A DNA stretch of 64,000 bases, from the NCBI GenBank assembly GCA_964402405.1, contig CAYOCE010000001.1, positions 435 to 64,434 on the forward strand, given 5' to 3'. The notes under the pieces are model-generated. The model saw nothing but the letters and a program-made list of their open reading frames with translations, was not told the DNA's origin and made no database searches. Positions 27,233 through 46,054 of this stretch are shown piece after piece. Numbering within the stretch: position 1 is the first letter of the stretch; each line of letters begins with the position of its first letter. The position numbers were made by a program, and so were the translations under genes. This DNA comes from an uncultured Hyphomicrobiales bacterium (GTDB lineage Bacteria; Pseudomonadota; Alphaproteobacteria; UBA7879).

Positions 27233-28102
27233 CTATTTAAGATATTTTTTTAAGCAATCACGCACTTTACATTTAAATGTAAACAAAATTATTTTTACAA
27301 CCTGTAAAAAATTTTTAAAAAAAGGGAGTAGTAATTCTGTAAGATGAAAGTAGCCTTTTTGCCAAACTAGTTTGTACACATAAAATAAGCGAATTATGTA
27401 TTTTAAATTTCTCCTTACAACACTTGAAGCAGTAAAATTTGAAAATCTAGCGTCTCCAGAGTAGTAAAGAAGTAAATGCTCTTCTATACAAAATAACTGG
27501 GTTTTCTTTGAAATACGCAAAACAAGCTCAAAATCTTCAGCGCCCGCAATTTTTTTTGTTTCATCAAACCATTCAGTTTTTTTTAAAAGAGCTTTTTTAA
27601 TAACAACAGAAGATAAAGGAACTGTATTTTTATACAAAAGATTTTTACTAGTGATGAGGGCAGGGCCTTCCTCCTCAAGATTAATCCATTCTTTTTTTTC
27701 ATTAAATCGCTTCATTTTTGTACAGCATAAACCAAAGTTTGGATTTTTCGATAAAAATGATAGCTGTTTTTCTAGTTTTTCTGGCAACCAAATATCATCA
27801 TCATCACAAAAAGCAATATAATTACCTTTAGAAATGCGTATTCCATGATTTCTCGGGGAGGCGGGGCTACCACTACCTTCTTGAAAAATAAATTTTATTC
27901 TTGGATCTTGAAAACTTTTAACAACGGCTTCTGAATCATCTGTTGATCCATTGGAAACAACAATAATTTCATAATCTGAGTACGTTTGATTTAAGATACC
28001 TTCAATGGTCTTCTTTAAAAGAGAGGCTCTATTAAACGTAGGAATTATAATACTGACTTCAGGCATCTTTGTCCCATTTAAAATGTATCTGATTGGTATC
28101 AA
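27233..28102 (-). CDS. Family 2 glycosyltransferase
   Basis: VSIIIPTFNRASLLKKTIEGILNQTYSDYEIIVVSNGSTD...CDDDD. Confidence 0.85.
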   Translation of the reverse strand: MIPIRYILNGTKMPEVSIIIPTFNRASLLKKTIEGILNQTYSDYEIIVVSNGSTDDSEAVVKSFQDPRIKFIFQEGSGSPASPRNHGIRISKGNYIAFCDDDDIWLPEKLEKQLSFLSKNPNFGLCCTKMKRFNEKKEWINLEEEGPALITSKNLLYKNTVPLSSVVIKKALLKKTEWFDETKKIAGAEDFELVLRISKKTQLFCIEEHLLLYYSGDARFSNFTASSVVRRNLKYIIRLFYVYKLVWQKGYFHLTELLLPFFKNFLQVVKIILFTFKCKVRDCLKKYLK

Positions 28103-29399: not shown

Positions 29400-30476
29400 T
29401 TATTTTTCCATAAATTCCATAATTTGTTTGCGCGTTATTTGAACGGCTTCTTCATCTTGCTGAATGCGCTGATACCATTCACCCGTTTTCATAACAGCTT
29501 CATTAAAGGGAAGTTTTGGTCCCCATTTCAACAGTGTCTGGGCTTTATCAATGGAGAGGTGAAGCAAGTTGGATTCATAGGGTTGATTAGGATCTGATTC
29601 AATCTGAACCTTAGCATCTTTCCATAAAGATTTTAGGACGTTAGTTAGTTCCAAAACAGTTTTAATGGATTGATTTGAAGGTCCAAAGTTCCACGACTCC
29701 CCATTATATTGATTTGAATTTTTATACAGATGTGCCCCTAAGCATAAATAACCATGCAAGGGGTCTAAAACATGCTGCCATGGTCGGGTAGATTGGGGAT
29801 TTCTAAGAATAATGGGGTTTTTACTTTCGACCGCTCTAATTATATCAGGTACGATACGATCTCGGGACCGATCTCCTCCCCCTATAACATTTCCAGCCCT
29901 GGTTGAGCCACATCCAAAATTTTTTCGATCTTTAAAATAAGATAAATAATAACTCTTGAATACATGTTCGGCAGAAGCCTTGGAGGCACTATAAGGATCG
30001 GGACCGCCTAGTTCATCATTTTCCCGATAACCCCAAACCCATTCTTTATTCCAATAACACTTATCGGATGTTATATAGACCAAGGAACGTACAGAAGGAC
30101 ACTCTCGAATAGATTCTAATATGTTTACCGACCCCATAACGTTTGTACTAAAGGTCAGCCGGGGATCTTGGTATGAGCGTCTTACGAGGGCCTGAGCAGC
30201 AAGATGAAAAACAAATTCAGCCTTAGATTTTATCAATGATTCTTTTAGGTTTTCATAATCTCTGATATCACCCACGATATGAGTTATACGTTCAGATAAC
30301 CTGAGTTTATCAAACAGAGAATCTTCATACTCCGGAGCAAGAGCATAACCTGTAACCTCTGCACCAAGTTCGTTCAACCAAAAGGCAAGCCAGGCTCCTT
30401 TAAAGCCTGTATGTCCTGTAATAAAAACTTTTTTTCCTTTATAAAACTCTGTAAGGTTCATTTCCATGTTTTCCAA
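29400..30476 (-). CDS. rfbG: CDP-glucose 4,6-dehydratase
   Basis: VFITGHTGFKGAWLAFWLNELGAEVTGYAL N-terminal signature, with an adjacent cytidylyltransferase. Confidence 0.8.
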   Translation of the reverse strand: MENMEMNLTEFYKGKKVFITGHTGFKGAWLAFWLNELGAEVTGYALAPEYEDSLFDKLRLSERITHIVGDIRDYENLKESLIKSKAEFVFHLAAQALVRRSYQDPRLTFSTNVMGSVNILESIRECPSVRSLVYITSDKCYWNKEWVWGYRENDELGGPDPYSASKASAEHVFKSYYLSYFKDRKNFGCGSTRAGNVIGGGDRSRDRIVPDIIRAVESKNPIILRNPQSTRPWQHVLDPLHGYLCLGAHLYKNSNQYNGESWNFGPSNQSIKTVLELTNVLKSLWKDAKVQIESDPNQPYESNLLHLSIDKAQTLLKWGPKLPFNEAVMKTGEWYQRIQQDEEAVQITRKQIMEFMEK

Positions 30477-31237
30477 GGTGCTTTATTCTGCTCCCACAAC
30501 TGATTTAAAAGTTGATATTCTCGTGATGTATCCATTGGATGCCAAAAGTCTTGATGCTTATAGACCATCAACTGACCGTCTTTGACGATATTTGTAATCG
30601 GTTCTTTTTCAAAAATTAAATCTTCATTCGGGGTAAGATAATCCAAAACTTTACGATTGCACACAAAAAAGCCCGCTGAAATCCAACCTTCTGTTACCTG
30701 AGGTTTTTCATTAAATCCAACAACCTGATTCCCATCCAATTCTAATTCTCCAAATCTTCCTGGAGGATGGGCTGCTGTTATGGTCATCAATTTGCCATGT
30801 GATTTATGAAACTCTACAAGCTGTTTTATGTCAACGTTTGAAACACCATCTCCATATGTTAACATGAAAAGATCGTCATTTTGAACATATTGCTTGATCC
30901 TAAAAACCCTAGCACCTGTTAAAGAATTCAGACCTGTTTCTGCAAATGTAATTTTCCAATCATCAATCACACGATGAGAATGATCTTCGATTGATTTATT
31001 TTTTAAATCTAAGGTAAAATCATTTTGACGTTTCTGATAATTTAAAAAATAATCTTTAATGAGGTCGCTTTTATAGCCCAAACACAAAACAAATTCTTTA
31101 AACCCATAATGCGAGTATTGCTTCATAATGTGCCAGAGAATGGGATAATTTCCAATAGGAATCATCGGTTTTGGTAGGTCACTCGTCACATCACGAATCC
31201 GGGTTCCATACCCACCTGCAAGAATTACTGTTTTCAC
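30458..31237 (-). CDS. rfbF: Glucose-1-phosphate cytidylyltransferase
   Basis: MKTVILAGGYGTRIRDVTSDLPKPMIPIG...EKP nucleotidyltransferase signature. Confidence 0.85.
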   Translation of the reverse strand: MKTVILAGGYGTRIRDVTSDLPKPMIPIGNYPILWHIMKQYSHYGFKEFVLCLGYKSDLIKDYFLNYQKRQNDFTLDLKNKSIEDHSHRVIDDWKITFAETGLNSLTGARVFRIKQYVQNDDLFMLTYGDGVSNVDIKQLVEFHKSHGKLMTITAAHPPGRFGELELDGNQVVGFNEKPQVTEGWISAGFFVCNRKVLDYLTPNEDLIFEKEPITNIVKDGQLMVYKHQDFWHPMDTSREYQLLNQLWEQNKAPWKTWK

Positions 31238-32205: not shown

Positions 32206-33140
32206 ACTTTGTCCTCAACAATTTGATCTGCCCAATTTTTAAATTCCTGCAACCCACGAATTAAATCATATTTAGGTGAATATCCAATCACATGGGAAGC
32301 CTTAGAAATATCTGCATAACATCCCATTATATCACCTGGCGTATTCCCAATGACCTCTACTTTTACTTCTTTATTGTATATAGAAGCAATTAAATTTATT
32401 AACTCACCAATGGTGGTTTTAACACCTGACCCAATATTAAAAATTTGATTGGGGATATTCTTCTTAAGACACAATATCCAAGCATCCACAATATCATCGA
32501 TATATACAAGATCCCTGAATCTTTCTAGTTTTCCTTGAACCGGAATATAGTTTCCTTCTTTTACATAACTCAGAAAAATGCTCACAATTCCTTGATCTTT
32601 TCTGGATAAATCTTGTCCAGGCCCATACACATTAAACATCCTTAAGGCATTCCAGGAAATGCCAAGTTTCTCTGCATATATTTTTAAATAATACTCACCC
32701 GTTAGCTTTCCTAATCCATAAAGAGATTTTGGATCACATGGTAAATCCTCGCTTAACATTTCATGTTGAGCATTATCCCCGTAAACTGTGAAGGATGATG
32801 CAAATAAAATTCTGGGAACTTTCAAATGATCACATAAACGAATCATGTTTAACGTTCCTAAAATATTTACTCTAAGATCATGTTCTGGATCTTTAAAAGA
32901 GGCCACGCCAGAAGATTGTGCAGCAAGATGTAACACGGCATCAAAACCGTTACTCAGCTCAATTTTTTTTAAGGATTCAAAATCTGTTATATCTGCTTTT
33001 ACAACATGCCTATTGCTCGTATCAGTTACAATATTGGTCGAAAAATTATCCAGGATAGTCACTTCATAATTTTCTTGTTCAAGTTTTTGAACAATTCGGG
33101 ATCCAATATATCCCATTCCACCAGTTACTAAAATTTTCAT
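32202..33140 (-). CDS. NAD-dependent sugar epimerase/dehydratase (SDR)
   Basis: VTGGMGYIGSRIV and YGLGK. Confidence 0.7.
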   Translation of the reverse strand: MKILVTGGMGYIGSRIVQKLEQENYEVTILDNFSTNIVTDTSNRHVVKADITDFESLKKIELSNGFDAVLHLAAQSSGVASFKDPEHDLRVNILGTLNMIRLCDHLKVPRILFASSFTVYGDNAQHEMLSEDLPCDPKSLYGLGKLTGEYYLKIYAEKLGISWNALRMFNVYGPGQDLSRKDQGIVSIFLSYVKEGNYIPVQGKLERFRDLVYIDDIVDAWILCLKKNIPNQIFNIGSGVKTTIGELINLIASIYNKEVKVEVIGNTPGDIMGCYADISKASHVIGYSPKYDLIRGLQEFKNWADQIVEDKV

Positions 33141-34222
33141 GATATTAATCCACTGTTCTTTTGAAATTCTTTCATTTCTACCAGAAAACGATCCATTAAA
33201 TCCTTTATCCCAAGGGTAACTGTAATGTACCTATCCCACGGGGCTGACCAAGGTCCCTTTACATATATTTTTCTTTCGCGCAAAAATTCAACACATTTCT
33301 TGCAGTTTTCAGCTGTCTTCAAATCTATCAAGAGATAATTTCCTTTGTTACCATAAGAAAAAATGCCAAGTTTTTTTAACTCTTCTTTGATATAAGCTCT
33401 TGATTCATTAATTTTATCCGTATAATTTTTCACTATCTCAAAATGATCCAAGAGATATTCAGCAACTGCTGCACTAAGGGCATTTGCTTCATGGGCGAAA
33501 CGTGTTTTTGAAAGCAATTCCATGTTCTCAGTGCTTGAAACCATATATCCTAGACGAATGGACGGAACCCCAAAAGCTTTTGAGAAAGTACGCATAACAA
33601 CTACGTTTTCAAATTCATCCACCAAGGGTATTGCTGATTCTGCTCCAAAGTAGTGGTAAGCTTCATCCACCACGAATAAACACCCTACCTCTAAACATTG
33701 TCTTGCCATATGACGTAACTCCTCCAGAGAGAAACAAGACTCAATTGGCTGATTAGGATTGGGAAGAAAGAAAATCCTGGGATTGGATTTCAAAAAACTC
33801 TTAAAGCTATCTGAGTCCATACTAAAATCTGGCTTGTAATCCACATGAATCATTTTTGCTTGAAATAGCTTAGCGTATACATCGTACATGGCATAAGTAG
33901 GATAAAGAACACCAACACACTCATTGGGTTCTATAAGAACTTCAAAGAGCGTTTTGATGACGCCATCAATCCCAGAAAATACAAGAACTTGCTCTTCTTT
34001 TACACTCAAATGACTTGCCAACTTTTTATACAAACCAGACAAATCTGGATAGATGCTAAAAAAAGCTGCGGGTTTGGATTTTAGAGCTTCAAGAATAAAA
34101 TCTTTAGGCCAATTATCAACTTTCTCATTACGATCAAGCCTTAAGCCGTTGACCAAATCACGTTCTTCAGATATGCGAACTCGCTTTATATCTCGTAGAT
34201 AGCTTTTTTTAGTAAGAAACAT
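33137..34222 (-). CDS. PLP-dependent aminotransferase, class I/II (HisC-like fold)
   Basis: RTFSKAFGVPSIRLGY lysine motif, similar to histidinol-phosphate/threonine-phosphate class enzymes. Unusual inside a sugar locus. Confidence 0.55.
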   Translation of the reverse strand: MFLTKKSYLRDIKRVRISEERDLVNGLRLDRNEKVDNWPKDFILEALKSKPAAFFSIYPDLSGLYKKLASHLSVKEEQVLVFSGIDGVIKTLFEVLIEPNECVGVLYPTYAMYDVYAKLFQAKMIHVDYKPDFSMDSDSFKSFLKSNPRIFFLPNPNQPIESCFSLEELRHMARQCLEVGCLFVVDEAYHYFGAESAIPLVDEFENVVVMRTFSKAFGVPSIRLGYMVSSTENMELLSKTRFAHEANALSAAVAEYLLDHFEIVKNYTDKINESRAYIKEELKKLGIFSYGNKGNYLLIDLKTAENCKKCVEFLRERKIYVKGPWSAPWDRYITVTLGIKDLMDRFLVEMKEFQKNSGLIS

Positions 34223-34231: not shown

Positions 34232-36037
34232 TCATTTAGTTAAAAGAAATTGAAACATTTTATAGTCGGGTTTTTTATAATAAGCCTCGAAAAAAGATTT
34301 AAATTTTTTACAACACTCAGTATAGTAAGTTTTGTCTTCTAGTAATTTTTCAACAACCTTACTCCCTTCTTCTATGCGACTAATTTGAAAAGATGCATCC
34401 GCCATTTTATCAACATCAATCTGTATATCAGATTTTATGAAAAGAGCAGGTATTCCTCTGGCCGCCGCACTAAAGCTAACAGAGCTTGAATTGTAAAAAA
34501 CTAAATAGCATTCGTCAATGAGGGCATCCCAATTTAAATCAGAAATTACAGAATTAATTTTTTTGTCTTTCAAAGTTTTTTCAATTATTTTTTTTGCATC
34601 TTGTGACATATAAGGGTGAAAATTAACAACCAGCGTTATATTTTTTAAAAGAGAATCAGTAAGATTTTCCATAATTTCAGAGACCTTGTTTACCAGCTCA
34701 AGGGAGTCATTTAGCTGAATAGAACAGCTACATAAAATTTTTCTTTTTGTTGATCTAGAAAATTTTTTAAGATGATCTGTAGCATCTTCTAAAGAAGAAA
34801 GCCTAACATTACCCAGCAATTTATAGTCTAAGAATCCTATATCCTTCAATCTTTTTCCAAATATTTCATCACTTAATAGTATGGTAGGGCTAATTTTTTT
34901 ACTAATGTAGGCTTGGGATGGGTAACATGTTAAATAATCCTGTGCCACAGGAAAATGTTGATAAGCAAAAACCTTACCTTTGGGAAACTGCGTACGAAAA
35001 GAAAGACTTAAGAGTTTTTCCCAAGGTTGATTTTCATAGGGGTATACTAATGTAATGCTAGACTCTTCAATTTCTCTGAAAATATTTTGAGAAGCATAAT
35101 AGGTTTCAAGTGCCAATGACATCCTATAATTTAAGGCATCCTTAAGGCAAAACCACTTCCACAAACTTGAAAAATTTATATCGTCAATCTTAAAGCGGTG
35201 ATTGAAATACCTCAGGAAGCGAAAGGATACGACAAAAGAATAAAGCACTTCCCTAATTTTAACAAAATCTTGGATAAATAAAGAACTTTTATTTTCTTTT
35301 AAAGAATTTTTTATAATTTTATAAAAAGGAAAATTAAAATCTAAGGGTTTCCCTATCACTGCCAAGTCAATATTTGATTTTTTTAGATGAGAAAGAAAAT
35401 CTCCAAAATATCTATCTTTGAAGAATAAATTTTCAGGATTAAATGATTCTAATCCAATCCAATTTACACATAAAACCTTAGATTTTTTAACAATAGATAA
35501 ATCAATGGGTGTCTTATGATAGATTCTTAAAAATTTTAAAATTAAAATTTTCCAAAAAGCTTTAGAAACTTCTCGCATTTTCCTCCATAAAAATCCCAAC
35601 ATTCTTTTAAGGAGGAAAAAATAATTAATCCTGCTACTTACTTCAAATCCATTATTTTTTAAAATTTTAGAATAAATAAAAACCTGTTCATCATCATCAC
35701 AGATAAAAACTACATCTTTATATTTTGGAAGAACCTCCTTGATAATTGCAAGTGAGTTTAAAATGTATAAGGAAAAATTTTCAAGGCAAAGATTATTTTC
35801 AGCAAGATCGCTGGCGAGCCATAAAGAATCTGAAACATCTGGAATGTTTTTATCTAGATTGATAAGAGTGTTTTTATATTCTAATAATATCTTTTTTCTG
35901 TGAACAGATAGATCCTTGACTGGGACTTTTTTCTTTTTGAGATAGAGAAAATTTTTAATTTTTACGCCTAAAAAATAAACATGCGTATGTCTTTCATAAG
36001 TAAAATTTCCTTTTTTTGTTGAAATAACCAGTGTCAT
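34232..36037 (-). CDS. Large GT-B-like 'HP-motif' protein, paralog 1 (KpsS/KpsC/TagF-like capsule glycosyltransferase candidate)
   Basis: C-terminal VVNFHPYMS ... LIDECYLVFYNSSSVSFSAAARGIPAL pattern, shared with 42876-44717 and 52989-54155. Confidence 0.35.
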   Translation of the reverse strand: MTLVISTKKGNFTYERHTHVYFLGVKIKNFLYLKKKKVPVKDLSVHRKKILLEYKNTLINLDKNIPDVSDSLWLASDLAENNLCLENFSLYILNSLAIIKEVLPKYKDVVFICDDDEQVFIYSKILKNNGFEVSSRINYFFLLKRMLGFLWRKMREVSKAFWKILILKFLRIYHKTPIDLSIVKKSKVLCVNWIGLESFNPENLFFKDRYFGDFLSHLKKSNIDLAVIGKPLDFNFPFYKIIKNSLKENKSSLFIQDFVKIREVLYSFVVSFRFLRYFNHRFKIDDINFSSLWKWFCLKDALNYRMSLALETYYASQNIFREIEESSITLVYPYENQPWEKLLSLSFRTQFPKGKVFAYQHFPVAQDYLTCYPSQAYISKKISPTILLSDEIFGKRLKDIGFLDYKLLGNVRLSSLEDATDHLKKFSRSTKRKILCSCSIQLNDSLELVNKVSEIMENLTDSLLKNITLVVNFHPYMSQDAKKIIEKTLKDKKINSVISDLNWDALIDECYLVFYNSSSVSFSAAARGIPALFIKSDIQIDVDKMADASFQISRIEEGSKVVEKLLEDKTYYTECCKKFKSFFEAYYKKPDYKMFQFLLTK

Positions 36038-36101: not shown

Positions 36102-36917
36102 TCATTTTTTAATCAGAGCTCCTCCAAAAGGTAAATACATGAAAAAGCTTGGGTTTTCTTTTTCAATAAAATCATCAGTAGCTTTTTTAGCACCAGGAAA
36201 TTGACTTATTCCATAATCATCCAAACATATTATTCCTCCGTCAACTAATCTGGGATAAAAAAATTCTAGTGAATTTTTGATTGGCTGGTATAAGTCAACG
36301 TCAATATGAACAAAAATAAATTTTTCTTTCTCTATCTCATGAAATTTTGTTGGAATCCATCCTTTATAATACTCTATAAATTTAAACTCTTTTAGATTTT
36401 TTTTAACTAAATCTAAGCCTGCAGAAAATTGTTTTTTTAAATTTTTTACTTCTTCTTCAGAAATTTTTTTAATTTCATTCTGGTCTTCCAAATCAATATT
36501 TGATAAACCTTCAAATGAATCAAATACAAAAAATTTATTTTTGAAATTATTTTCCTTTAAAATAGTTGCCAATCCATAAGTAGATTGTCCTTTAAAGCAC
36601 CCACACTCTACAACATGGCCATTGGTATGATTTTGCAGCGTACTTCTCAATAGCTGGAATAATATATAATGCCTTAAGCGCTTTGAAAGATTATCATCAT
36701 TCTGCTGACTAGTTGCCTTAATAGATTTTTCATATAACCTGACTTCGGGAGAGTTTTTATTATAAAAACTGAAAAGAGAAAAATCAAAAATATCTATATG
36801 GTTTGGTTTTGATTTTTTAATATTTTTCAAACTCATATGATAATTAAGAGATTTTTTATGAAATAAAATATAAACAATATCGCTTAGTAGGTCTGCAATT
36901 TTGGATTTTAAAGTCAT
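36102..36917 (-). CDS. TylF/MycF-like SAM-dependent O-methyltransferase
   Basis: GHVVECGCFKGQSTYGLA...FVFDSFEGL. Confidence 0.45.
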   Translation of the reverse strand: MTLKSKIADLLSDIVYILFHKKSLNYHMSLKNIKKSKPNHIDIFDFSLFSFYNKNSPEVRLYEKSIKATSQQNDDNLSKRLRHYILFQLLRSTLQNHTNGHVVECGCFKGQSTYGLATILKENNFKNKFFVFDSFEGLSNIDLEDQNEIKKISEEEVKNLKKQFSAGLDLVKKNLKEFKFIEYYKGWIPTKFHEIEKEKFIFVHIDVDLYQPIKNSLEFFYPRLVDGGIICLDDYGISQFPGAKKATDDFIEKENPSFFMYLPFGGALIKK

Positions 36918-36963
36918 TTTTGTTCTTTCCTATTAAAAATGTATATTTTGAAATGTGGTTATT

Positions 36964-38181
36964 TTAAATTTTTACTTTATTTTTGATAACAGCGTAAAAA
37001 AGATCTGCCATAATTTCCATTCCTTTTTCATTTAAATGAACCTCGTCTATAAAATTTGATTTATTATGAGAGAGCAGTTTTGGCACTTCAATAATTGATA
37101 TAGAGTGCTTAGAAGCTAGTTCTCTTATAATATTATTTTCCTTTTGAACTAAATCATGAAATTTAATATGGATAGGGCTATTTTTGATTTCGTCATAAAG
37201 ATAGTAGCAATAAGTTGATAAAATCAATTGGATTTTTTTCCCTTGGCAGACATAAATTAATGTTTCTAAGTTACGCCTGAATGTGTCTAGTCCCTCAGGG
37301 TTTTTTTCCCTATTTATTTTATCATTCTTATTGATATTACGTATAAAATCTTCTTTAATGTTAAAATAACTTAGATATTCGCCAACAAGATATCTTAAAA
37401 CCCATAGCCCAAAAGTAGGTATAAAGCTAGCAACTTTCACTTTTTTGGGATAAGTAGAGGGGATGGTTTTGCGAAAATGAGAAAAATCTCTTTCAAACCC
37501 ATCTGTAAGATATCCCCTTACATTAACAAAGGCATGATAAAGAATAATCATATCCGGTTCTGTATCAATAGTATCAATAAGAAATTTTATTAAAATTTCA
37601 TTTGTGTTATAAGCTCCCTGAGCACAATTATTTACTTCAATTTTTTTATTTATCTTTTTGAGCTTTGATTCAAGTATTAAAGGCCAGCTAATAAAATGAT
37701 TTTCGTTTATTTTTACATAATTACTAGTAGCAGAGTCCCCTAAACAGATAATTCTAAATACATCAGAAGGCTTAGGAATTTTTACTTCCCTACTACCATC
37801 TGGGCCATTTATCTGCCTTAAATTGTTTGTTTTTAGTCCCCCATTCATAAACCCAGCTGCCTCTTCGCTGCATATCTTTTTATTTGAAGGTGGAATATAG
37901 TTTTTTTTGTATACCCACGGTAGATATGGGTGACTTTCGAAGGGAAGATCCTCCTCCTTTAAGGGAAATTTTTTAGGAAGATCCTTCCCATGCCATTTTC
38001 TATAAATATATCTAAAGGAAATTTCATATAATATGAAAAAAGAGAGCATTATAATAATACTAAAAAAAGAAAAATAATTCATATATAAGAAAAAAATTCC
38101 TACTAAGAAAAAACTTATAAAATAAAAAAGATATTTTCTTTTTTCTGGCTTAACTAAAAAATGTACTGTTTTTTTTATCAT
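36964..38181 (-). CDS. SGNH/GDSL-family hydrolase with N-terminal TM segments
   Basis: ICLGDSATSNY GDS(x) block after two hydrophobic helices. Confidence 0.4.
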   Translation of the reverse strand: MIKKTVHFLVKPEKRKYLFYFISFFLVGIFFLYMNYFSFFSIIIMLSFFILYEISFRYIYRKWHGKDLPKKFPLKEEDLPFESHPYLPWVYKKNYIPPSNKKICSEEAAGFMNGGLKTNNLRQINGPDGSREVKIPKPSDVFRIICLGDSATSNYVKINENHFISWPLILESKLKKINKKIEVNNCAQGAYNTNEILIKFLIDTIDTEPDMIILYHAFVNVRGYLTDGFERDFSHFRKTIPSTYPKKVKVASFIPTFGLWVLRYLVGEYLSYFNIKEDFIRNINKNDKINREKNPEGLDTFRRNLETLIYVCQGKKIQLILSTYCYYLYDEIKNSPIHIKFHDLVQKENNIIRELASKHSISIIEVPKLLSHNKSNFIDEVHLNEKGMEIMADLFYAVIKNKVKI

Positions 38182-38182
38182 T

Positions 38183-38788
38183 TCAATATCTAATCCAAAT
38201 TGATTTTTTATAAACAGACCTTAAAGGGGATAAAAATAAATTTTCTGTATCAATAAATTTATTTTTTTCCTCTCCAACAACTAACATGTATATTTTTGAA
38301 GCCTGCAGAAGTGTTCCTTCTGTTAAGCTTATCCTATTAGGATTTTGCTTCTTTGTTTTAAAAATTTCGGTTCTCTTATTTTTCCAATCTTGGGCCTCTT
38401 CAGGAAACAAGGACGCCACATGCCCATCTTTACCCATACTTAGGATTGTTATTGTTGGAAATCCTTGCATTTGCGCAAGAAGCTCTTCATTTAAGGAGCA
38501 ATAATTGTAGTTAGGTAGAAAATCTAAGAAATACTGTTTCAATTGTCTTTCATTGCTCATCTCATGGTCCGAAGATACACAACGCTCATCAGTTAGTCCA
38601 ATCGTAATTTTGTCCCAAGGGGCATTTATTGATATAAGATAAGGAAAAAACAGTTTAATGCTATTTCCCCCAGGTAGAATTAAAACAGCATGACCAGAGG
38701 TTTTGATGCACTGAATCAAATCTTTTTCAATCTCTTGTTTTAGAAACTCTCCCGCTTCTTGGACAGTTTGAAATCTGTAATCTTCCAT
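38183..38788 (-). CDS. 6-phosphogluconolactonase / NagB-family sugar-phosphate isomerase-like
   Basis: LILPGGNS...TDERCV...MGKDGHVASLFP motifs. Confidence 0.55.
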   Translation of the reverse strand: MEDYRFQTVQEAGEFLKQEIEKDLIQCIKTSGHAVLILPGGNSIKLFFPYLISINAPWDKITIGLTDERCVSSDHEMSNERQLKQYFLDFLPNYNYCSLNEELLAQMQGFPTITILSMGKDGHVASLFPEEAQDWKNKRTEIFKTKKQNPNRISLTEGTLLQASKIYMLVVGEEKNKFIDTENLFLSPLRSVYKKSIWIRY

Positions 38789-39435
38789 TAGTTTAAATCT
38801 TTAAAGCTCTCTATTATAGGGATAGACAAATCAAAAGGACTTACTTCTCCTTTAGGAACTCGTCCAATAAATAATACATTCATCGCCGTGGCAGCCTTAA
38901 AATCACTTACACTATCACCTACAAAAATTGCCTCTTCTCTGCCCAAATTACACTCTCGCATAATATTCTTACCCACTACACTTTTTTCATGGGGAGAGCC
39001 ATATATGCCCTGAAAACTATTTAATAAGTTTCTTTTGTCGCAAATGGTAAGGAGCTCTTCCTGAGGGGTTGCTGATAGTAAAAAAACAGGAATCTTATCA
39101 GCTGTCATTTTCCTCAAAAAGCTATTAACTCCTTCAACAAAAGGGCAACCCAGAATTTTTTGAAAAACGATGTCCGAAAATTTCTTTGATAGCTCTAATT
39201 TTTCGCTATCTTGACATTCTCTATTCAAAAAAAGCTTGTGTATGGCTTCGAACTTTTTAGCCCGATTAACTCCTTGGTATCTAATGTGGTATTCTCTCGC
39301 CTTTTCTGCAATCTCGGAACTATAGGGCAAGTATAGGTCATAGAACGCCTGAGTTTTAATATCTGCCGATTCTAAGACCACTCCATCAAAATCTAAAAAA
39401 ACACTTTTAAGGTTTTTGGGGAGTATATTTTTCAT
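38788..39435 (-). CDS. HAD-superfamily phosphatase
   Basis: Motif I FLDFDGVV and GDSVSD. Confidence 0.7.
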   Translation of the reverse strand: MKNILPKNLKSVFLDFDGVVLESADIKTQAFYDLYLPYSSEIAEKAREYHIRYQGVNRAKKFEAIHKLFLNRECQDSEKLELSKKFSDIVFQKILGCPFVEGVNSFLRKMTADKIPVFLLSATPQEELLTICDKRNLLNSFQGIYGSPHEKSVVGKNIMRECNLGREEAIFVGDSVSDFKAATAMNVLFIGRVPKGEVSPFDLSIPIIESFKDLN

Positions 39436-40327
39436 GTATTTCTTCCATGCAATTTAAAATTCCCTGACCAAATTCCAGATACTCTCGACTTACTAGCTTT
39501 TTAGAAATTTGCGGCTTAAAAACATACGGAGTGAATTTATAATGGCCATGTAGTCTATCAATTTCGGGTTTTTGTGTTTCAATCTTAATATCTCCGCCAA
39601 GCATCTCGTTAATTATATTTAGTAACTCCCCACGGCTAATGTGCTGATAACCTGTTAGCATAACATGAGTGTTTTTATAATTTTCTGCAAGGATATCCAC
39701 ACTCATGCGCGCTGCATCATAAACATGAATATAATCTCTTTTTTCATCACTGCCATATCCAAGCTTGATAGTCTTTTCTATAATTGCCTGCTTAATAATA
39801 CGATGGATTAAATTTCGTTCGTCTGCTCGGGGACCATAAAGTGATCCATATCTTAAAATCGTATAGTTAATCCCAAAATTCTTTTGATACTCTTCAATGA
39901 TAATTTCACAAGCTTGTTTACTTGCTCTATAAAAACCACCCACATTAGAATATACATAAATTGTGGATGCAAAAACAAACCGTTCCACACCATGCTTATG
40001 ACAAGATTCTAGAATATTTATTGTTCCTTGTATATTCAGGGAAAGGGTTTTTTTCGGCTCTTCAAAACCTATCCCTATATCTGCTTGCCCAGCTAAGTGA
40101 TATATATAATCTTTCCCTTCAATTGCTTTATCAACCAAATCTTGATCGAGAATACTTCCCTGAACAAAGCTTTGTTTGTCATTAACAAATTTAGAAGGTT
40201 GAATATCAAAAATAGTTGTTTCTATACCAGCGTTTGTGAGGGCATCTGCTACATGACTACCAACAAACCCAGATCCACCAAATACTATTGCTTTTTTCAT
40301 TTTAACACCTAGTAAAATTAAATTCAT
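39407..40327 (-). CDS. NAD-dependent epimerase/dehydratase (SDR)
   Basis: VFGGSGFVGSHV and YRASK. Confidence 0.7.
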   Translation of the reverse strand: MNLILLGVKMKKAIVFGGSGFVGSHVADALTNAGIETTIFDIQPSKFVNDKQSFVQGSILDQDLVDKAIEGKDYIYHLAGQADIGIGFEEPKKTLSLNIQGTINILESCHKHGVERFVFASTIYVYSNVGGFYRASKQACEIIIEEYQKNFGINYTILRYGSLYGPRADERNLIHRIIKQAIIEKTIKLGYGSDEKRDYIHVYDAARMSVDILAENYKNTHVMLTGYQHISRGELLNIINEMLGGDIKIETQKPEIDRLHGHYKFTPYVFKPQISKKLVSREYLEFGQGILNCMEEIHEKYTPQKP

Positions 40328-41261
40328 TGAGAGGCCTCAATAAAGGCTCCCCCTTTAAAAAACGCACCACATCTTCAACAACTTGCTCCTCCATAAGATC
40401 TCTTACTTCTTGTGCTAAAGAACCCAAATGAGAAGTTAGCAAACAATTCTCTAGTTCAGTTAATCTACCTTGATAGGGCTCAGTTTCAAACACATCTATT
40501 GCTGCCCCTGCCAGATGATTACTCTTAAGCATTTGATATAGTATAGATTCATCTACAATACCACCCCGAGATGTATTAACAAAATAGCTTTCTTTTTTCA
40601 TAAGACTTAAGAGTTTTCCTCCTACTAAGCCCTTGGTTTTAGCATTTAAGGGTAGATGAAGGGAAATAAGATCACTTTCTCGAAAAAGATGTTCGATACT
40701 GCATTTGGTTGCATGCTCAGTAAACTCCACGTAGGGATCATAAAATAAAATATCTGACGAAGGGACTATCAATTTAATAAGTTGTATAATTTTAGCGCCG
40801 ATTTTGCCTGCGCCAACAATTCCTACTTTTAATGAAGATAGCATATGTCCCATAGGACGATGCCAAATTTTTTGATGCATTTTTCGATCTGAAGCTGAAA
40901 TTTGTTTCAAAAGGTTGAGAATAAGAGCAAGTGTAAATTCAGGTACCGCTTCAGAGGGAGCGTCTGGTGTGTAGCTTATACTGATCTTTTTCTCTTTAGC
41001 AGCCTCAAGATCAATGCTATCTACCCCCACACCTACACGAGCAATAAGTTTCAAATGAGGGGCATGCTCAATCACAGATCGAGTGATTTTTTCTGTTCCA
41101 GCAATCAAAACATCTGCATCAGAAATATGCTCGATAAAATCCTTTTCCGTATAGCGAATTCCCTCTGTATTTAAAAAGACATTTCCAAAATTTTGTAATT
41201 CTTTTAAAAGGTTAGGGGATTTACTACAAAATCCTATATTAGATACAAGAATATTATGCAT
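40302..41261 (-). CDS. D-isomer-specific 2-hydroxyacid dehydrogenase
   Basis: GIVGAGKIGAKI NAD-binding motif and a catalytic R/E/H-containing C-terminal half. Confidence 0.75.
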   Translation of the reverse strand: MHNILVSNIGFCSKSPNLLKELQNFGNVFLNTEGIRYTEKDFIEHISDADVLIAGTEKITRSVIEHAPHLKLIARVGVGVDSIDLEAAKEKKISISYTPDAPSEAVPEFTLALILNLLKQISASDRKMHQKIWHRPMGHMLSSLKVGIVGAGKIGAKIIQLIKLIVPSSDILFYDPYVEFTEHATKCSIEHLFRESDLISLHLPLNAKTKGLVGGKLLSLMKKESYFVNTSRGGIVDESILYQMLKSNHLAGAAIDVFETEPYQGRLTELENCLLTSHLGSLAQEVRDLMEEQVVEDVVRFLKGEPLLRPLNEFNFTRC

Positions 41262-42012
41262 ATTTTTTTACTAATTCATCCTGTAATAAAATTTTAGAAG
41301 CACGCTCTAAATCATAGGGCACATCAACTGCAACTGTTTCTTGATCTGTGTAGACAACCCTCAAGGGTTTTCCGTGCTCAAGGATTCTTAACATATCAAT
41401 TGATTCCACTTTTTCCAAAGGTGTTTGGGGTAAATTACTAAATTCATTAAGAAAAATTCGCGAAAAGCCTATAACTCCAGTTTGTTGATAAATAATAGCT
41501 CCCTTATCCCTGTAAGTTGATGGTATCGGTGCTCGAGAAAAATAAAGGGCTCGTTGATCAGGAGAAGAAACCACTTTCACAACATTTGGATCTTCATGAT
41601 CTGCCGTAGTATAAATTCTTGATAAAAGATTAACTACAGGAAGGTAATTGTTCTCATAATCATTGATCACAGCATCAATCATATCGGGCGTAACAAGAAT
41701 TTCATCACCCTGAACCATTATAATAAAATCTTTATCACTTAAACTAAAATCAAGTTTTTCAATTGCCTCACTGACCCGATCTGTGCAGCGTTCATGCTTA
41801 TCACTTGTCATAATCACTGGAATATCATATTGTTCGCAAACTTGCTGTATTTCCTTATCGCAAGTAGCAACACCAACATAGTCAAGTTGGGGGGAAAGGC
41901 AACAACGCTTTGCAACATGTATAACAACTGGAATATTCAAAGCCTTAGCAAGTGGTTTTCCGGGAAATCTTGAAGATCCCATCCGGGCGGGTATGATGCA
42001 AATTTTTTTCAT
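41254..42012 (-). CDS. CMP-ulosonic acid cytidylyltransferase (KdsB/NeuA family)
   Basis: ICIIPARMGSSRFPGKPL N-terminal signature. Confidence 0.75.
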   Translation of the reverse strand: MKKICIIPARMGSSRFPGKPLAKALNIPVVIHVAKRCCLSPQLDYVGVATCDKEIQQVCEQYDIPVIMTSDKHERCTDRVSEAIEKLDFSLSDKDFIIMVQGDEILVTPDMIDAVINDYENNYLPVVNLLSRIYTTADHEDPNVVKVVSSPDQRALYFSRAPIPSTYRDKGAIIYQQTGVIGFSRIFLNEFSNLPQTPLEKVESIDMLRILEHGKPLRVVYTDQETVAVDVPYDLERASKILLQDELVKKYA

Positions 42013-42716
42013 TTCTTAATACCTTGTAAAGAGCATCTTAAAGCAACAATATCTGTACCGTAGGCAATGAAATCATACCCTTCTTCAACACGTTTTTTTA
42101 ATGAGTCTAGGTTTGGCTCTACCTGATGGTACCCAATCATCTTTTTACTTTTTCTTGTTTCTTCGACTATTGAATTACATATATCTTTAAACGCAAAATC
42201 TTCAAAACATCCGGCTTTTCCAAGACTTGCCGTTAGATCATAAGGACCAATCATGATCCCATCTAAAAATTGAGAAGAAATAATATTTTTTATATTTTCA
42301 GCACCCACTTTTGTTTCAATTTGGGCAATAAGAATTGGTTTAAATTCACTAAAATATTTCTCTAAATTTTCTCCCCAGGCATTTGCCCGCATGAGACCTA
42401 AACCCCTTTTTCCTTTTGGAGGAAAAAAACAATGTTCTGCAAATTCATCAAATTTTTCTAATGACTCTACGACGGGCACCAATAGCCCCACCGCTCCCGA
42501 ATCTAATAGACGCCTTGCTAAATAAGGGTCTGCTGAAGGCAATCTTACAAGGGGTTTCGTATTATGCCGTTCGGCTGCTATAAAAATAGATTCGGCTTCT
42601 TGGGTTGTAATGCAAGAATGCTCAAGATCAACAACTATCCAATCAAATCCCAAGCTCGCCATAGCAATAGTCACTTGTGGGGATGGAAGCTGTTGCCACG
42701 CAGCAAGAATAGTCAT
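42009..42716 (-). CDS. HpcH/HpaI-family class II pyruvate aldolase
   Basis: LGFDWIVVDLEHS...VRLP...LDSGAVGLLVP motifs. Confidence 0.7.
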   Translation of the reverse strand: MTILAAWQQLPSPQVTIAMASLGFDWIVVDLEHSCITTQEAESIFIAAERHNTKPLVRLPSADPYLARRLLDSGAVGLLVPVVESLEKFDEFAEHCFFPPKGKRGLGLMRANAWGENLEKYFSEFKPILIAQIETKVGAENIKNIISSQFLDGIMIGPYDLTASLGKAGCFEDFAFKDICNSIVEETRKSKKMIGYHQVEPNLDSLKKRVEEGYDFIAYGTDIVALRCSLQGIKK

Positions 42717-42875
42717 CTATATCTCTCTCTTTAAAATTGCTTTGATCCACGCCCAAAAATAACTTTTATTATTGGCATACATTTCAAGAAACTCTTTTCT
42801 AACACTTTGTATCTTCTCATCATACCACCATTTTTTATATCATTCATTTTTTAAATTCCACTTAGTAAATAAAGC

Positions 42876-44717
42876 CTATTTTGGTATAATATTAAGAAGC
42901 CTTTCGTAGGACATTGTATCATTAAATGGATTGTAATAATTTTTTAAAAAAGATGATCCATTAATGTAACTCAGAGGCTGTCTTTTTTCTGTGCATTCTA
43001 ACAAATCCTTGTGAAGAGTGGTGACAAGATCATCAGAGTTCTTAAAAAGAACCCCATCTTGCAGTAAGGATTTTTTGCATTCATCTGTATAAAATTCTGA
43101 TTGTATCAAGCAGTAAGACTTTAAACCGCAAGCCATAGCTTCTAGTAAAGAGGTAGACGGACGATCGGTAATGAAATAATCCCCTTCCACTAAAAAATTT
43201 TCTAGTGGTAAAGAATTAACAAAATAAACTCTTAGATCATCTCTGAAAAGAAATCTGAGGGCTGAGTGATAACCATCACCACTAGGGTGGCCTTTTAAAA
43301 TTAGGTCAAAATCTACATCAGTTTTTAGTAGAGACTTTATCAATTCCCTTTGTTGATCAAAGTCTTTAAGACTTGGAGGATGATCAAGTGTTACTCTTAC
43401 TCCATCATTAACTGCTTGAATTAAATAAATAATTAAAGGCTTTCCTGATTTTTTATAAATTGATTTACTTTTTTTATTTAATACTTCTTTTCTTAAATAA
43501 TCTATCTGTGGGGATCCTATAGAATGAATATTAATTTTATCAAAATTCCCCTCTTGCTTTATTTGCTTTTGGACTTGATTCCCCCAAACAAAGTAGTCTG
43601 TAACAAAGGGGTATTCCAAAAAAGCATTAAGCTTATCCTTCAGTATCCCTAAGGATCCATGATGAAAGCAATATACTTTTTTATTATGAAAGATAAATAT
43701 TTTGGCTAAAGCCTTTGATTCAAACGTATTGAACCCTGTAGATAAAATACACCTCCAAGTCATTTCCTTGGTTTTTTTTTCATAAAATTTTATTGTTTTA
43801 AATGCGCTTTGTAAGAAGGAATCCATAGTAGATACAAGTATCCCCTTGTAATATTCCTGGTAATTCACTCTCATAATTTCAAAATCATTGGGCTGTAGGT
43901 TGCTATTAACTATATCATCGACGTCAAATTTTTTTGATGTAAGTTGTGGAATATTATTTATCGTATCAAAATTTTTCAACTTTCCAAAAAAATCTCGATT
44001 ATATACGCCGATACATAATATGTGTTTTTTTGAAAAAACTTTTTGTAAAAAATTCTTGCATCTCCCTATAAAAGACACAGGAATTGAATTATCTGCAAAT
44101 TGCTTAAGGATTGTTTTAGATTCTAATTCAGGTCTATAACCTGATATACTATTTTTTGGATCGTAGTAGCCAACTTTAGTTAGGTTTCTATCTTTAAATA
44201 CTGAATTTATTTCAAGATCCAAAGAGTGGTGTGTATGGTATGGATAGCTAGGGTAGGAAAAACTGGGTTCCTTAAAAGGAACATAGTATATATCCACAAT
44301 AGCACCCAATTTTTTTTTCAAGGCCAAAAATTCATATATCCTTAATTCAATGCTATCACACCATGTTCGTAAGTAATAAAATGCAAACTGAGAAAATACC
44401 ATGTCATATTTTTTGAGTTCTGGATAATTGTCAAATATCTTTTCATCTAATTTACTTACTATTTTTGAAAGAGATTCGTAAGACTCATCAAAAATATAAT
44501 GCTGGAAACTATTATAGTTGTAGAAATCTGTAATTCTTGCAATTTTAACATTTTCTTTTTCAAGAAACAAAAGAGCTGTATCCGTGATTGCTACCCATAG
44601 AATGTCATTTTCTGCTATTTTTGTTTGAGAAAAATATTCTTTAAATATATTAATTTGTTCAGGGAACTGAACAATAGCAATCCCTTTAAAATCACCTAAT
44701 ATTTCAGTCATTAACAC
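42876..44717 (-). CDS. Large GT-B-like 'HP-motif' protein, paralog 2
   Basis: ILKGHPSG ... ITDRPSTSLLEAMACGLKSY pattern, as in paralogs 1 and 3. Confidence 0.35.
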   Translation of the reverse strand: MLMTEILGDFKGIAIVQFPEQINIFKEYFSQTKIAENDILWVAITDTALLFLEKENVKIARITDFYNYNSFQHYIFDESYESLSKIVSKLDEKIFDNYPELKKYDMVFSQFAFYYLRTWCDSIELRIYEFLALKKKLGAIVDIYYVPFKEPSFSYPSYPYHTHHSLDLEINSVFKDRNLTKVGYYDPKNSISGYRPELESKTILKQFADNSIPVSFIGRCKNFLQKVFSKKHILCIGVYNRDFFGKLKNFDTINNIPQLTSKKFDVDDIVNSNLQPNDFEIMRVNYQEYYKGILVSTMDSFLQSAFKTIKFYEKKTKEMTWRCILSTGFNTFESKALAKIFIFHNKKVYCFHHGSLGILKDKLNAFLEYPFVTDYFVWGNQVQKQIKQEGNFDKINIHSIGSPQIDYLRKEVLNKKSKSIYKKSGKPLIIYLIQAVNDGVRVTLDHPPSLKDFDQQRELIKSLLKTDVDFDLILKGHPSGDGYHSALRFLFRDDLRVYFVNSLPLENFLVEGDYFITDRPSTSLLEAMACGLKSYCLIQSEFYTDECKKSLLQDGVLFKNSDDLVTTLHKDLLECTEKRQPLSYINGSSFLKNYYNPFNDTMSYERLLNIIPK

Positions 44718-45375
44718 ACCGTATCATCAAAAAAGCTTCAGCTTTCCTTAGTCCAACAGAGGCTCCCCTATGTTCTGCTAATGATTGTAAATGCTCCATT
44801 GAGCGCGTATGGGGAAATGGTCGCATCTCTTGATTGTAGGCATTAATCGCAGTTACTTTTTTGTCCCAATAATCTTCAATATTAATAAAATAATTGGGTA
44901 TAAATAGATTATTGCCTAAACTCCATTCTGTTGCAGATAACACCTCGTAAGTATAGATTTCTTTAACATAGCTTCCAGGAATTGGTCTACATGCAGTTAG
45001 AGTTGATCTGTGTACTATAGCATGATCTACATTCAAATCTCCATAGTGATGAGTGTATACAACACTAGGTTGAAAATCCTCGATAACTTTCTCAATTTTT
45101 TGAACTATATCTAACAGAGGAATAGTATCCAAACGATTATCAGGAAAATCGAAAAATCCTAAACTTTCTGCCCCTAAAATTCTTAAAGCATTTTCAGCGG
45201 CGTGTTTTCTTTTCTTTAAATTTTCTGCAAATGCATCATTTCGAGCCCCCACCCCATCAGCTATAAACAATACTCCTATCCGATCTCCCTTTGCAGAGTG
45301 TTTAGAAATTGTCCCGCCGCAACCTAATGCTTCGTCATCTGGATGTGCTGCAATTACAAGTATATTTTTAGTCAT
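44704..45375 (-). CDS. PIG-L/LmbE-family N-acetylsugar deacetylase
   Basis: ILVIAAHPDDEALGCGGT. Confidence 0.85.
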   Translation of the reverse strand: MTKNILVIAAHPDDEALGCGGTISKHSAKGDRIGVLFIADGVGARNDAFAENLKKRKHAAENALRILGAESLGFFDFPDNRLDTIPLLDIVQKIEKVIEDFQPSVVYTHHYGDLNVDHAIVHRSTLTACRPIPGSYVKEIYTYEVLSATEWSLGNNLFIPNYFINIEDYWDKKVTAINAYNQEMRPFPHTRSMEHLQSLAEHRGASVGLRKAEAFLMIRCVND

Positions 45376-46054
45376 TTGTTAAAACCTCCAAAGATCGTTT
45401 TCCACAATTTGCAATAAGATCCAAACAAGATAAATAAGGAATAAACTGATTCGAATGCTGAGGATAAACTGGATGGACATAACCATCAAAAATAACCTCT
45501 ATATTAGCTTCCTTAAATTTATCCAATTCTAAATAATCTCTTCCAAAAGGACCCGAAATGTATTTTGTGGCTTTAAATTTATTACATATTTCTAAAACAA
45601 GCTCACTTTTTGTTTGTTTAAAATTATAATCCGAAGAAAACTCAATAGGAGTTGTAACCTCTAAATATTGAATAAAAAATTTCAAAGATTGTCTTAAAAT
45701 ATCATTTAAAATCTCGGAAGTAGAAAAATACATTTTACTTAATTCTTCACCAAATTCTGACCAATGGGGCGATTTAGAATAGGCTTGCTCAATGGATAAC
45801 CAGTGCTTTCTTCTCCAATTGATTTTTGGATCTATATTTAGAGCATTAATTCTTAAATTATCTGATTTTCCTTTTGTTAAAACAGGGATGGTCAGCCAGG
45901 TAGGGTTTTGATTTAAAAGAATTTTATTTCGATTTGTAAAGCTATTTTTTTCAAACTGAACATGATCAAGCACAATATGTAAGTCGCTTTTTACAATGCG
46001 ATTAAAATATCCAAGCCATGGTAGATAGGCAGGTTGATTGATCGAAATAATCAT
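45368..46054 (-). CDS. WbqC-family protein
   Basis: ISINQPAYLPWLGYFNRI N-terminus typical of the WbqC-like family. Confidence 0.65.
   Translation of the reverse strand: MIISINQPAYLPWLGYFNRIVKSDLHIVLDHVQFEKNSFTNRNKILLNQNPTWLTIPVLTKGKSDNLRINALNIDPKINWRRKHWLSIEQAYSKSPHWSEFGEELSKMYFSTSEILNDILRQSLKFFIQYLEVTTPIEFSSDYNFKQTKSELVLEICNKFKATKYISGPFGRDYLELDKFKEANIEVIFDGYVHPVYPQHSNQFIPYLSCLDLIANCGKRSLEVLTND

Follow-up and report, generated by a model that had tools for sequence, protein, structure and literature searches.

Here, we describe three genes, in the following called A, B and C, that are encoded within 64,000 nucleotides of contig CAYOCE010000001.1 from an uncultured Hyphomicrobiales bacterium (assembly GCA_964402405.1); this whole stretch, at its full length, is referred to as the window. 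An earlier note on this DNA had read the three as paralogous, candidate retaining transferases of nonulosonic or ulosonic acids that share a GT-B glycosyltransferase fold and a His-Pro (HP) motif. All three open reading frames were confirmed, and all are located on the minus strand:

34232-36037, minus strand: gene A, 601 residues; canonical GT-B core behind an N-terminal accessory domain; related to TIGR04326 (O_ant_LIC13510), but divergent.
42876-44717, minus strand: gene B, 613 residues when read from a GTG; GT-B core with a long helical insertion; BFO_1060/LIC12162/TIGR04396 superfamily.
52989-54155, minus strand: gene C, 388 residues; stand-alone GT-B-like protein that corresponds to the core part of A and B; weak similarity to Glyphos_transf.

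The more likely start of B, judged from its sequence, is the ATG at 44711, which gives 611 residues, because the methionine at position 3 is invariant in the family and the public record P0016 is 611 residues long. Close relatives are few: among 5.8 billion clusters, 15 were found for A, which represents a rare family, four for B and 21 for C. All of them are unnamed or 'hypothetical', and looking up the clusters of A, B and C themselves yielded neither names nor accessions. An exhaustive search with a hidden Markov model (HMM) of the B family raised its relatives from four to 99, mostly of 600-660 residues. A 40-sequence alignment drawn from these 99 provides the B superfamily profile as well as the residue counts for B given below. 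Compared with a C-like GT-B core, A and B carry approximately 200-300 extra residues.

A BLASTP comparison of A and C yields E = 1e-5 over 98 residues, which include both motifs described below, and no significant match was obtained for A against B or B against C with BLASTP and shallow profiles. The homology of B to the other two emerged only after the exhaustive HMM search had enlarged its family. In hhalign, the 40-sequence profile then aligns with the C family at 98.1% probability (E 8e-14) and with the A family at 97.2% (E 5e-11), with the HP and the serine motif in register in both alignments. The A and C families align at 92% (E 7e-7), with residues 181-572 of A over 24-355 of C. Identity within these profile alignments ranges from 9 to 15%. 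The alignments indicate that A, B and C are genuine but ancient, remote homologues. Only in this sense can the term 'paralogous' be kept.

The motif peptides quoted in the earlier note were found in all three proteins, and their window coordinates were verified. Together, they form a common collinear pattern, HP...(S/T)S...A...G(I/L)(P/K), with 40-44 residues between the HP and the serine motif. A further element of interest lies in the N-domain of the core. The sites are located as follows:

34613-34621, minus strand: FHP of A (residues 473-475), invariant, directly after the second C-domain beta-strand (467-472); predicted contact to the CMP phosphate.
34448-34492, minus strand: NSSSVSFSAAARGIP of A (516-530), strand-helix element of the C-domain; predicted phosphate/ribose binding.
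43284-43295, minus strand: KGHP of B (475-478), after the second C-domain strand (471-475); K475 in 40/40, H477 in 32/40 and P478 in 31/40 sequences.
43119-43166, minus strand: DRPSTSLLEAMACGLK of B (518-533); D518 in 38/40, P520 in 39/40, T522 in 38/40, Q/E526 in 39/40.
53370-53378, minus strand: HPK of C (260-262); P261 invariant, H260 and K262 in at least 90% of the members.
53211-53255, minus strand: HKSSVGMQALYMGIP of C (301-315), from the C-family alignment.
35015-35038, minus strand: YENQPWEK of A (334-341), nearly invariant; loop that follows a beta-strand in the N-domain of the GT-B core; candidate site of acceptor binding or catalysis.
34949-34963, minus strand: YQHFP of A (359-363); H361, a candidate general base, pairs with H353 in B (QHG motif) and with D141 in C.
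43656-43664, minus strand: HHG of B (352-354), (Q/H)-H-G in the superfamily, H353 and G354 in 39/40; candidate catalytic base.
53724-53738, minus strand: YDNFD of C (140-144); Y140 and D144 invariant, D141, N142 and F143 in at least 90%; acidic where A and B have His.

A regular expression derived post hoc from A, B and C matches these three only among the 81 stop-to-stop segments of at least 100 residues in the six frames of the window, and has no match in 300 residue shuffles. The window's other GT-B-type protein, PseG, is not among its matches. HP is kept without exception in the A family and in about 80% of the B superfamily members. Its conservation, and in A and B its location after the second C-domain strand, places A, B and C in the descriptive class of HP-motif GT-B enzymes with CMP (cytidine monophosphate) as leaving group. 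Mutagenesis, together with the structures of the sialyltransferase PmST1, demonstrated that the HP motif binds the CMP phosphate as well as the carboxylate of the sialic acid, and that its mutation raises the Km for CMP-Neu5Ac (PMC2169525). The second half of the shared pattern is of lower specificity. The arrangement (S/T)S...A...G-x-P is a generic feature of GT-B C-domains, common in GT-B enzymes including the UDP-GlcNAc 2-epimerases, and therefore not specific to Kdo (3-deoxy-D-manno-octulosonate) or sialyl transferases.

For the N-domain, two registers compete. The direct hhalign of A and C pairs E335 of A with D141 of C, one beta-alpha-beta unit off from the alignments that run via the deeper profile of B. 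We adopted the latter, which equates H361 of A with H353 of B and D141 of C, since it agrees with the strand prediction; the residue equivalence is accordingly a predicted one. H353 of B is presumably placed like the catalytic histidine of TagF/TarL-like enzymes, as judged from the similarity of the folds.

The claim of a GT-B-type core with an HP motif in its C-domain is borne out for all three, in A and B by their structure models and in C by homology at the profile level. The AlphaFold2 model of A (pLDDT 90.9, pTM 0.91) consists of an accessory alpha/beta domain (about residues 1-175) and a GT-B core (about 180-601), whose N-domain carries a helical insertion. In the models of A and B, HP comes immediately after the second C-domain strand and the serine turn after the fourth. 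In GT-B enzymes, the phosphate of the nucleotide is held at these two sites. Each of the two contains one GT-B core of canonical fold, not the heavily modified fold of the beta-Kdo transferases, and aligns with ordinary GT-B enzymes across 280-340 residues. The best matches of A to the Protein Data Bank (PDB) in Foldseek are UDP-GlcNAc 2-epimerases (E 5e-8), with NeuC among the matches listed. KpsC and WbbB are absent from the top 60 structure matches of A and B, and sialyltransferases do not occur among the matches listed either. When all four alignments were run as sequence profiles against the PDB, no significant relative emerged; the sole matches of the B superfamily are 2-epimerases at E = 1.5.

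The accessory domain of A (residues 1-175; 35513-36037, minus strand) exhibits a conspicuous motif of its own:

35798-35821, minus strand: WLASDLAE of A (73-80), accessory domain; W73, S76, A79 and E80 invariant, D77 and L78 in at least 90%.

These four invariant residues of W-x-x-SDLAE and, in addition, G130 are kept even in relatives of 20-25% identity, which suggests a second functional site. The only PDB sequence match of this domain is a weak one to a designed Rossmann 2x3 fold (E = 0.024).

None of the three proteins passes a curated threshold in Pfam or NCBIfam, and the family links described here are therefore those of outlying relatives. A matches TIGR04326 with 22.4 bits (cutoff 250; E = 3.4e-5; residues 308-547 on model positions 315-557). 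All 15 members of its family match this model (best 1.4e-20), which is named for surface carbohydrate biosynthesis and stands for proteins from loci of that kind, and A is best described from these profiles as a distant sister group of TIGR04326 and not as a member. B matches TIGR04396 (2e-9) and the BFO_1060 family NF046086 (2.5e-6; 26.9 bits, cutoff 200). Within its superfamily, 25 of 40 sequences match NF046086 (best 3e-18), 23 the LIC12162 transferase model and nine TIGR04396, and the profiles thus relate B to BFO_1060 at the superfamily level only. C matches NF046086 as well (E 6e-10; 38.8 bits, cutoff 200), and Pfam Glyphos_transf (PF04464) with 18.2 bits against a gathering threshold of 22.1. 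The latter model is matched by nine of the 21 C-family members with values down to 2.6e-8, and Epimerase_2 by three. A Pfam scan of A and B returned nothing except one spurious 15-bit match to SNaCT9, hence neither Glyphos_transf nor Epimerase_2, the latter also being without a match in NCBIfam; for C it returned only sub-threshold matches to Glyphos_transf, Glycos_transf_1 and Capsule_synth.

Several more specific assignments that the earlier note had considered did not hold. A kinship with the beta-Kdo transferases KpsC/KpsS finds no support in Capsule_synth (PF05159): there is no match at E <= 1 for A and B, an E of 0.14 for C (12.1 bits, cutoff 20), and a match in one of 21 C-family members (2e-4). 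A QXXXD motif with an Asp nucleophile is invariant in Capsule_synth/GT107 and in the GT99 beta-Kdo transferases (PMC10148158). The family alignments of A and C hold no invariant Q...D, and the Q434-AVN-D438 of B is not conserved, since the superfamily has mostly T/S at position 434 and mostly G/Q/H at 438. Together with the canonical fold, these results speak against KpsC/KpsS. The length of A and B does not reflect a two-module architecture of the KpsC or Maf/DUF115 kind, but one GT-B core with accessory N-terminal or helical parts; DUF115 (PF01973) gave no match at E <= 1 for any of the three. C has no match to LpxB (GT19) and is thus not reassigned to lipid A synthesis. The sialyltransferases of GT38, GT52 and GT80 were likewise rejected, as there are no Pfam matches and, despite the HP motif, the D/E-D/E-G motif of their N-domain is lacking: at the aligned position, A has YQHFP, B (Q/H)HG and C YDNFD. 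The acidic stretch CDDDEQ of A (113-118) belongs to the accessory domain and is not conserved in distant members. Among the sequence features examined, none is diagnostic for a retaining or an inverting mechanism, and the 'retaining' of the earlier note finds no support.

A and B are part of an operon of approximately 25 kb and 29 genes (27233-52774, minus strand), which is headed by an RfaH-like gene and comprises three nucleotide-sugar branches and three glycosyltransferase candidates, namely B, A and a GT2 protein:

52199-52774, minus strand: RfaH-like gene, head of the operon.
44704-51910, minus strand: pseudaminic acid (Pse)-type branch upstream of B, with PseB, CMP-transferase-like protein, PseG, NeuB/PseI-like, PseH-like and PseC-like proteins, methyltransferase, WbqC and PIG-L deacetylase.
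36102-42716, minus strand: second CMP-acid branch between B and A, with HpcH/HpaI aldolase, KdsB-like cytidylyltransferase, 2-hydroxyacid dehydrogenase, short-chain dehydrogenase/reductase (SDR), HAD, Pgl/NagB-like, GDSL and TylF methyltransferase genes.
29400-31237: CDP-glucose-derived branch, RfbF/RfbG.
27233-28102, minus strand: GT2, glycosyltransferase candidate.

The KdsB-like CMP-transferase of the second branch scores 273.5 bits against a cutoff of 255 (PRK13368). Downstream of A follow, in this order, a HisC-like aminotransferase, an SDR, a methyltransferase, RfbF, RfbG, another SDR, a small open reading frame and the GT2 gene that ends at 27233. The aminotransferase (33137-34222, minus strand) is a HisC/CobD-like class I/II enzyme, not of the DegT type usual in sugar pathways; it best matches histidinol-phosphate transaminase (E 2.5e-62), followed by threonine-phosphate decarboxylase (E 4e-37). 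The aldolase module, headed by a pyruvate aldolase, appears to lead to a CMP-activated 2-keto-3-deoxy acid without recourse to a NeuB/KdsA-type synthase, and no description of an HpcH-aldolase/cytidylyltransferase glycan pathway was found in the literature searched. The largest gaps within the operon, 159 nt after B (42717-42875) and 131 nt after the PseC-like gene (47679-47809), could hold internal promoters or a regulatory RNA. An ops element of the E. coli type (GGCGGTAGNNTG, up to two mismatches) occurs neither in the leader 51911-52198 nor in 52775-52988 on the two sides of the RfaH-like gene, and over the window as a whole, matches do not exceed the number expected by chance. A DNA element that recruits this RfaH paralogue, should there be one, differs from the enterobacterial type.

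The position of A and B is conserved beyond this genome. In four other assemblies, all metagenomes, with A proteins of 36-50% identity (loci L001, L002, L007 and L008), we find the same order of a methyltransferase-WbqC-PIG-L block, a B-type gene, a module of HpaI aldolase, CTP_transf_3 cytidylyltransferase, 2-hydroxyacid dehydrogenase, SDR, HAD, Pgl and further genes up to a methyltransferase, then A, a block of aminotransferase, SDR and methyltransferase, and GT2. The succession of A, aminotransferase, SDR and methyltransferase is kept in all four. The aldolase module is located at L001:3271-10004, L002:4598-9999, L007:3406-10004 and L008:118-2204, where the contig end leaves its 3' part only; the GDSL gene is a usual but not a constant component. 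The B slot is occupied by very divergent proteins of the same superfamily, one of them with 597 residues and an hhalign probability of 100%, and the one in L007 carries Pfam LIC12162 (PF27859). At 25% identity, the A homologue of L005 is still adjacent to a CTP_transf_3 gene, and RfbF/RfbG directly follow it.

A different situation was found in case of C, which the earlier note had already placed just outside the operon and described as bordered by a perfect palindrome and equipped with a hydrophobic N-terminal segment. Both features are real:

52909-52938, minus strand: perfect palindrome of 30 nt, hairpin with a 13-bp stem, a 4-nt loop and a T-rich tail (dG -22.3 kcal/mol, z = -4.4).
54093-54155, minus strand: hydrophobic N-terminus of C (residues 1-21), signal-peptide-like or an N-in anchor, preceded by basic residues in most homologues.

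The palindrome forms a terminator-like hairpin that ends gene C ahead of the RfaH-like gene, which argues for C as a monocistronic transcription unit of its own upstream of the operon. The hydrophobic segment is conserved in 21 of 21 family members, and C is probably exported or membrane-anchored, as far as such a segment predicts it. Relatives of C occur in unrelated contexts outside sugar-acid loci in Finniella, Endozoicomonas and two metagenomes; a relative of 54% identity has kept the divergent YifB neighbour without an RfaH operon beside it. The C family (loci L003, L004, L009-L036) occurs as a stand-alone gene, mainly in lineages that are presumably host-associated. In a scan of one genome per species, the family was found in Holosporales, Paracaedibacteraceae and other alphaproteobacterial metagenome-assembled genomes, in Endozoicomonas, Kistimonas and Endonucleobacter, and in Lentisphaerae. 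Many of these lineages are symbionts of eukaryotes. We exclude C from the operon because it has its own transcription unit, a signal-peptide-like N-terminus and no link to sugar-acid genes in other genomes. Taken together, the sequence comparisons describe C as a separate, conserved enzyme of the same superfamily that belongs to the core genome of this host-associated lineage, without a functional tie to the operon. The window also encodes a TLC-type ATP/ADP translocase (10102-11646, minus strand; Pfam E 3e-197) and a CtrA-like response regulator (56000-56686). In combination with the homologues in Holosporales, Paracaedibacteraceae and Finniella, they indicate an obligate intracellular alphaproteobacterium.

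We therefore read A, B and C as anciently diverged, TagF-like HP-motif GT-B enzymes whose donors leave CMP behind, with B and A likely being the transferases of the neighbouring acids and C standing apart. To this reading we assign a probability of roughly 60%. The donors of this sector of GT-B enzymes would be CMP-ulosonic or CMP-nonulosonic acids or CDP-linked compounds. The C-domain would bind the cytidine nucleotide, with the HP histidine (H474 in A, H477 in B, H260 in C) contacting or protonating the phosphate of CMP in the manner of PmST1 and the meningococcal polysialyltransferase, and a conserved residue of the N-domain (H361, H353 and D141, respectively) may activate the acceptor hydroxyl. 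B, directly downstream of the genes for Pse synthesis and N-acyl remodelling, would transfer a CMP-activated Pse derivative, so that 44704-51910 is the probable source of its donor. A, directly downstream of the HpaI-aldolase/KdsB-like module, would transfer the CMP-activated 2-keto-3-deoxy acid for which 36102-42716 is the probable source, and the CDP-glucose-derived third branch could be served by the GT2 protein. Of the earlier proposal that all three transfer Pse and the second acid, the part on B remains plausible through the BFO_1060 superfamily and that on A through the synteny with a CMP-activating module, and the part on C does not stand.

The closest experimental precedent comes from Tannerella forsythia. 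Deletion of Tanf_01245 or TFUB4_00887 removes the Pse or the legionaminic acid (Leg) derivative from the O-glycan, and CMP-Pse5Am7Gra still accumulates (Tomek et al. 2017, PMC5420450). Both genes are located immediately downstream of the CMP-nonulosonic acid genes, and their products have a TagB/GT-B prediction and an HP motif; BFO_1060 is the copy of strain 92A2 (PMC5420450). B resembles this family in its GT-B/TagB-like core, the C-terminal HP motif and the gene position directly downstream of CMP-nonulosonic acid synthesis. In contrast, the Tannerella proteins have about 445 residues compared with the 611-613 of B with its long helical insertion, and their D/E-D/E-G and DXD motifs are not evident in A, B or C. 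The families TIGR04326, TIGR04331/PF27859 (LIC12162) and TIGR04396 share the length of about 600 residues, the two-part architecture and the location in O-antigen or nonulosonic-acid regions, but are themselves uncharacterised, and the window proteins score so far under their cutoffs that they are outlying relatives and not members. A literature search on TIGR04326, TIGR04331, TIGR04396, LIC13510 and LIC12162 gave nothing useful; LIC12162 alone is mentioned in the literature searched, in one Herbaspirillum genome comparison. With the sialyltransferases of GT38, GT52 and GT80 (NmB polyST, Lst/NST, PmST1), A, B and C have in common the GT-B fold and a CMP-phosphate-binding HP motif in the C-domain. 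In PmST1, a Ser-Ser element about 44 residues after HP binds the phosphate, and many of these enzymes have an N-terminal hydrophobic anchor like that of C. The retaining beta-Kdo and Pse transferases of GT99 (WbbB), GT107 (KpsC/KpsS), GT118 (KpsS1) and GT140 (KrkA) also combine CMP-ulosonic acid donors with an HP motif. The kind of enzyme proposed here, i.e., a CMP-dependent GT-B protein with an HP motif encoded beside nonulosonic acid genes, is thus already known, and the families of A, B and C are biochemically uncharacterised and unannotated.

A number of observations weigh against this interpretation. The scores for the family models lie far under the curated cutoffs (22 versus 250, 27 versus 200, 37 versus 125 and 18 versus 22 bits), and the A family with its TIGR04326 relatives, the immediate B family and the C family are uncharacterised genetically as well. 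Donors are assigned to A and B by gene order only. An A homologue of 21% identity (L037) lies in another glycan locus that has no CTP_transf_3 gene within 6 kb upstream. No recognisable Wzx/flippase, Wzy/polymerase, ABC exporter, O-antigen ligase or initiating phosphoglycosyltransferase was seen in the operon (27233-52774), which, as annotated, does not encode the glycan acceptor and the export route. The signal-peptide-like N-terminus of C would bring this protein to a place that normally lacks nucleotide donors. Transfer is not proven by fold and motif alone, because 2-epimerases carry a collinear His...Ser/Gly...G-x-P.

The last point leads to the main rival, according to which A and/or B are GT-B enzymes of the NeuC/PseG/WecB type, nucleotide-sugar hydrolases or (hydrolysing) 2-epimerases, that free a sugar from a UDP- or CDP-sugar for the pyruvate-dependent HpaI-type aldolase of the second branch. 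It draws on the 2-epimerases as best structural matches of A and only PDB profile matches of the B superfamily, insignificant as the latter are, on Epimerase_2 in the C family, and on the need of an aldolase-based pathway for a free aldose, B being encoded directly upstream of the aldolase gene. We nevertheless regard it as unlikely: mutants of the BFO_1060 family, to which the B superfamily is tied by its profile, accumulate the finished CMP-Pse derivative and lose the transfer step only; the Pse branch already has PseG as its hydrolase; A follows the cytidylyltransferase and the tailoring genes instead of preceding the aldolase; A and B are without an Epimerase_2 match; and the operon would be left with GT2 as the one glycosyltransferase for three activated sugars.

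About equally unlikely is the second rival, which makes A and/or B phosphotransferases of the TagF type. TagF-like polymerases (PF04464: TagF 3L7I, TarL 8VA1, Bcs3 8A0C, Cps3D 8QOY) transfer alditol- or sugar-phosphates from CDP donors and form phosphodiesters, so that a CDP donor, e.g., from the branch at 29400-31237, would give a teichoic-acid-like glycan in place of a ketosidic linkage. Apart from the Glyphos_transf matches of the C family, the (Q/H)HG, K-x-HP and D-x-P-S-T of B seem to resemble the WHG, HP and DYSS motifs of the TagF family, and RfbF/RfbG lie within a few genes after A here and directly after it in L005. However, in L001, L007 and L008, where A and a B-type gene are retained, the stretch read holds no RfbF/RfbG, CDP-alditol genes for CDP-glycerol or CDP-ribitol (TagD/TarI/TarJ-like) were not seen in the operon, A and B have no Glyphos_transf match, and the sole genetically characterised relatives, the BFO_1060 family, transfer CMP-nonulosonic acids. 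Still less probable, in our judgement, is that the pattern is just a generic nucleotide-binding signature of GT-B C-domains, with A, B and C as ordinary UDP-, GDP- or dTDP-sugar glycosyltransferases and an incidental adjacency to the CMP-acid genes. The serine half of the pattern is indeed widespread, and for C the adjacency is in fact incidental. Against this stand the conservation of HP in all three families and PseG remaining outside the pattern. In the GT-B glycosyltransferases compared, HP marks the use of CMP-linked donors; it also marks the CDP-dependent TagF-like enzymes. Moreover, the profile links lead to BFO_1060, LIC12162 and TIGR04326 and not to GT4, and the slots of A and B beside CTP_transf_3 are kept with the full cassette at 36-50% identity, the CTP_transf_3 neighbour alone still at 25% in L005.

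The reading of B and A as transferases of the neighbouring acids can be extended, though only tentatively and with the odds against it. A and B would then found two new glycosyltransferase families, B for a remodelled Pse and A for an undescribed CMP-activated 2-keto-3-deoxy acid that is formed via a pyruvate-dependent HpcH/HpaI aldolase module, kept in several uncultured lineages, without a NeuB/KdsA-type synthase, and would build a surface glycan of an obligate intracellular, Holosporales-like bacterium. C, possibly exported and restricted to host-associated bacteria, might use cytidine-activated donors of the host at the cell surface, as gonococcal Lst reportedly does.

From a biological point of view, the transferases are the least known step of the nonulosonic and ulosonic acid pathways, with few characterised examples: the Tannerella pair, Maf, KpsS1 and the Kdo enzymes WbbB, KpsC and KrkA. 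For annotation, the case of C teaches that a gene should not be assigned to an operon on adjacency alone. The more unusual items at this locus are the conserved aldolase-based CMP-acid module, which hints at a conserved pathway from an aldolase to a CMP-activated acid, and the C family with its exported-looking, host-associated members. If our assignment of A and B is true, it would add two candidate transferases with an ordinary GT-B/TagF-like architecture instead of the modified beta-Kdo glycosyltransferase fold. It would also provide a function for the large unannotated families of 600-residue proteins, TIGR04326, LIC12162 and TIGR04396, which are companions of sialic-acid-like sugars in Leptospira and many uncultured bacteria.

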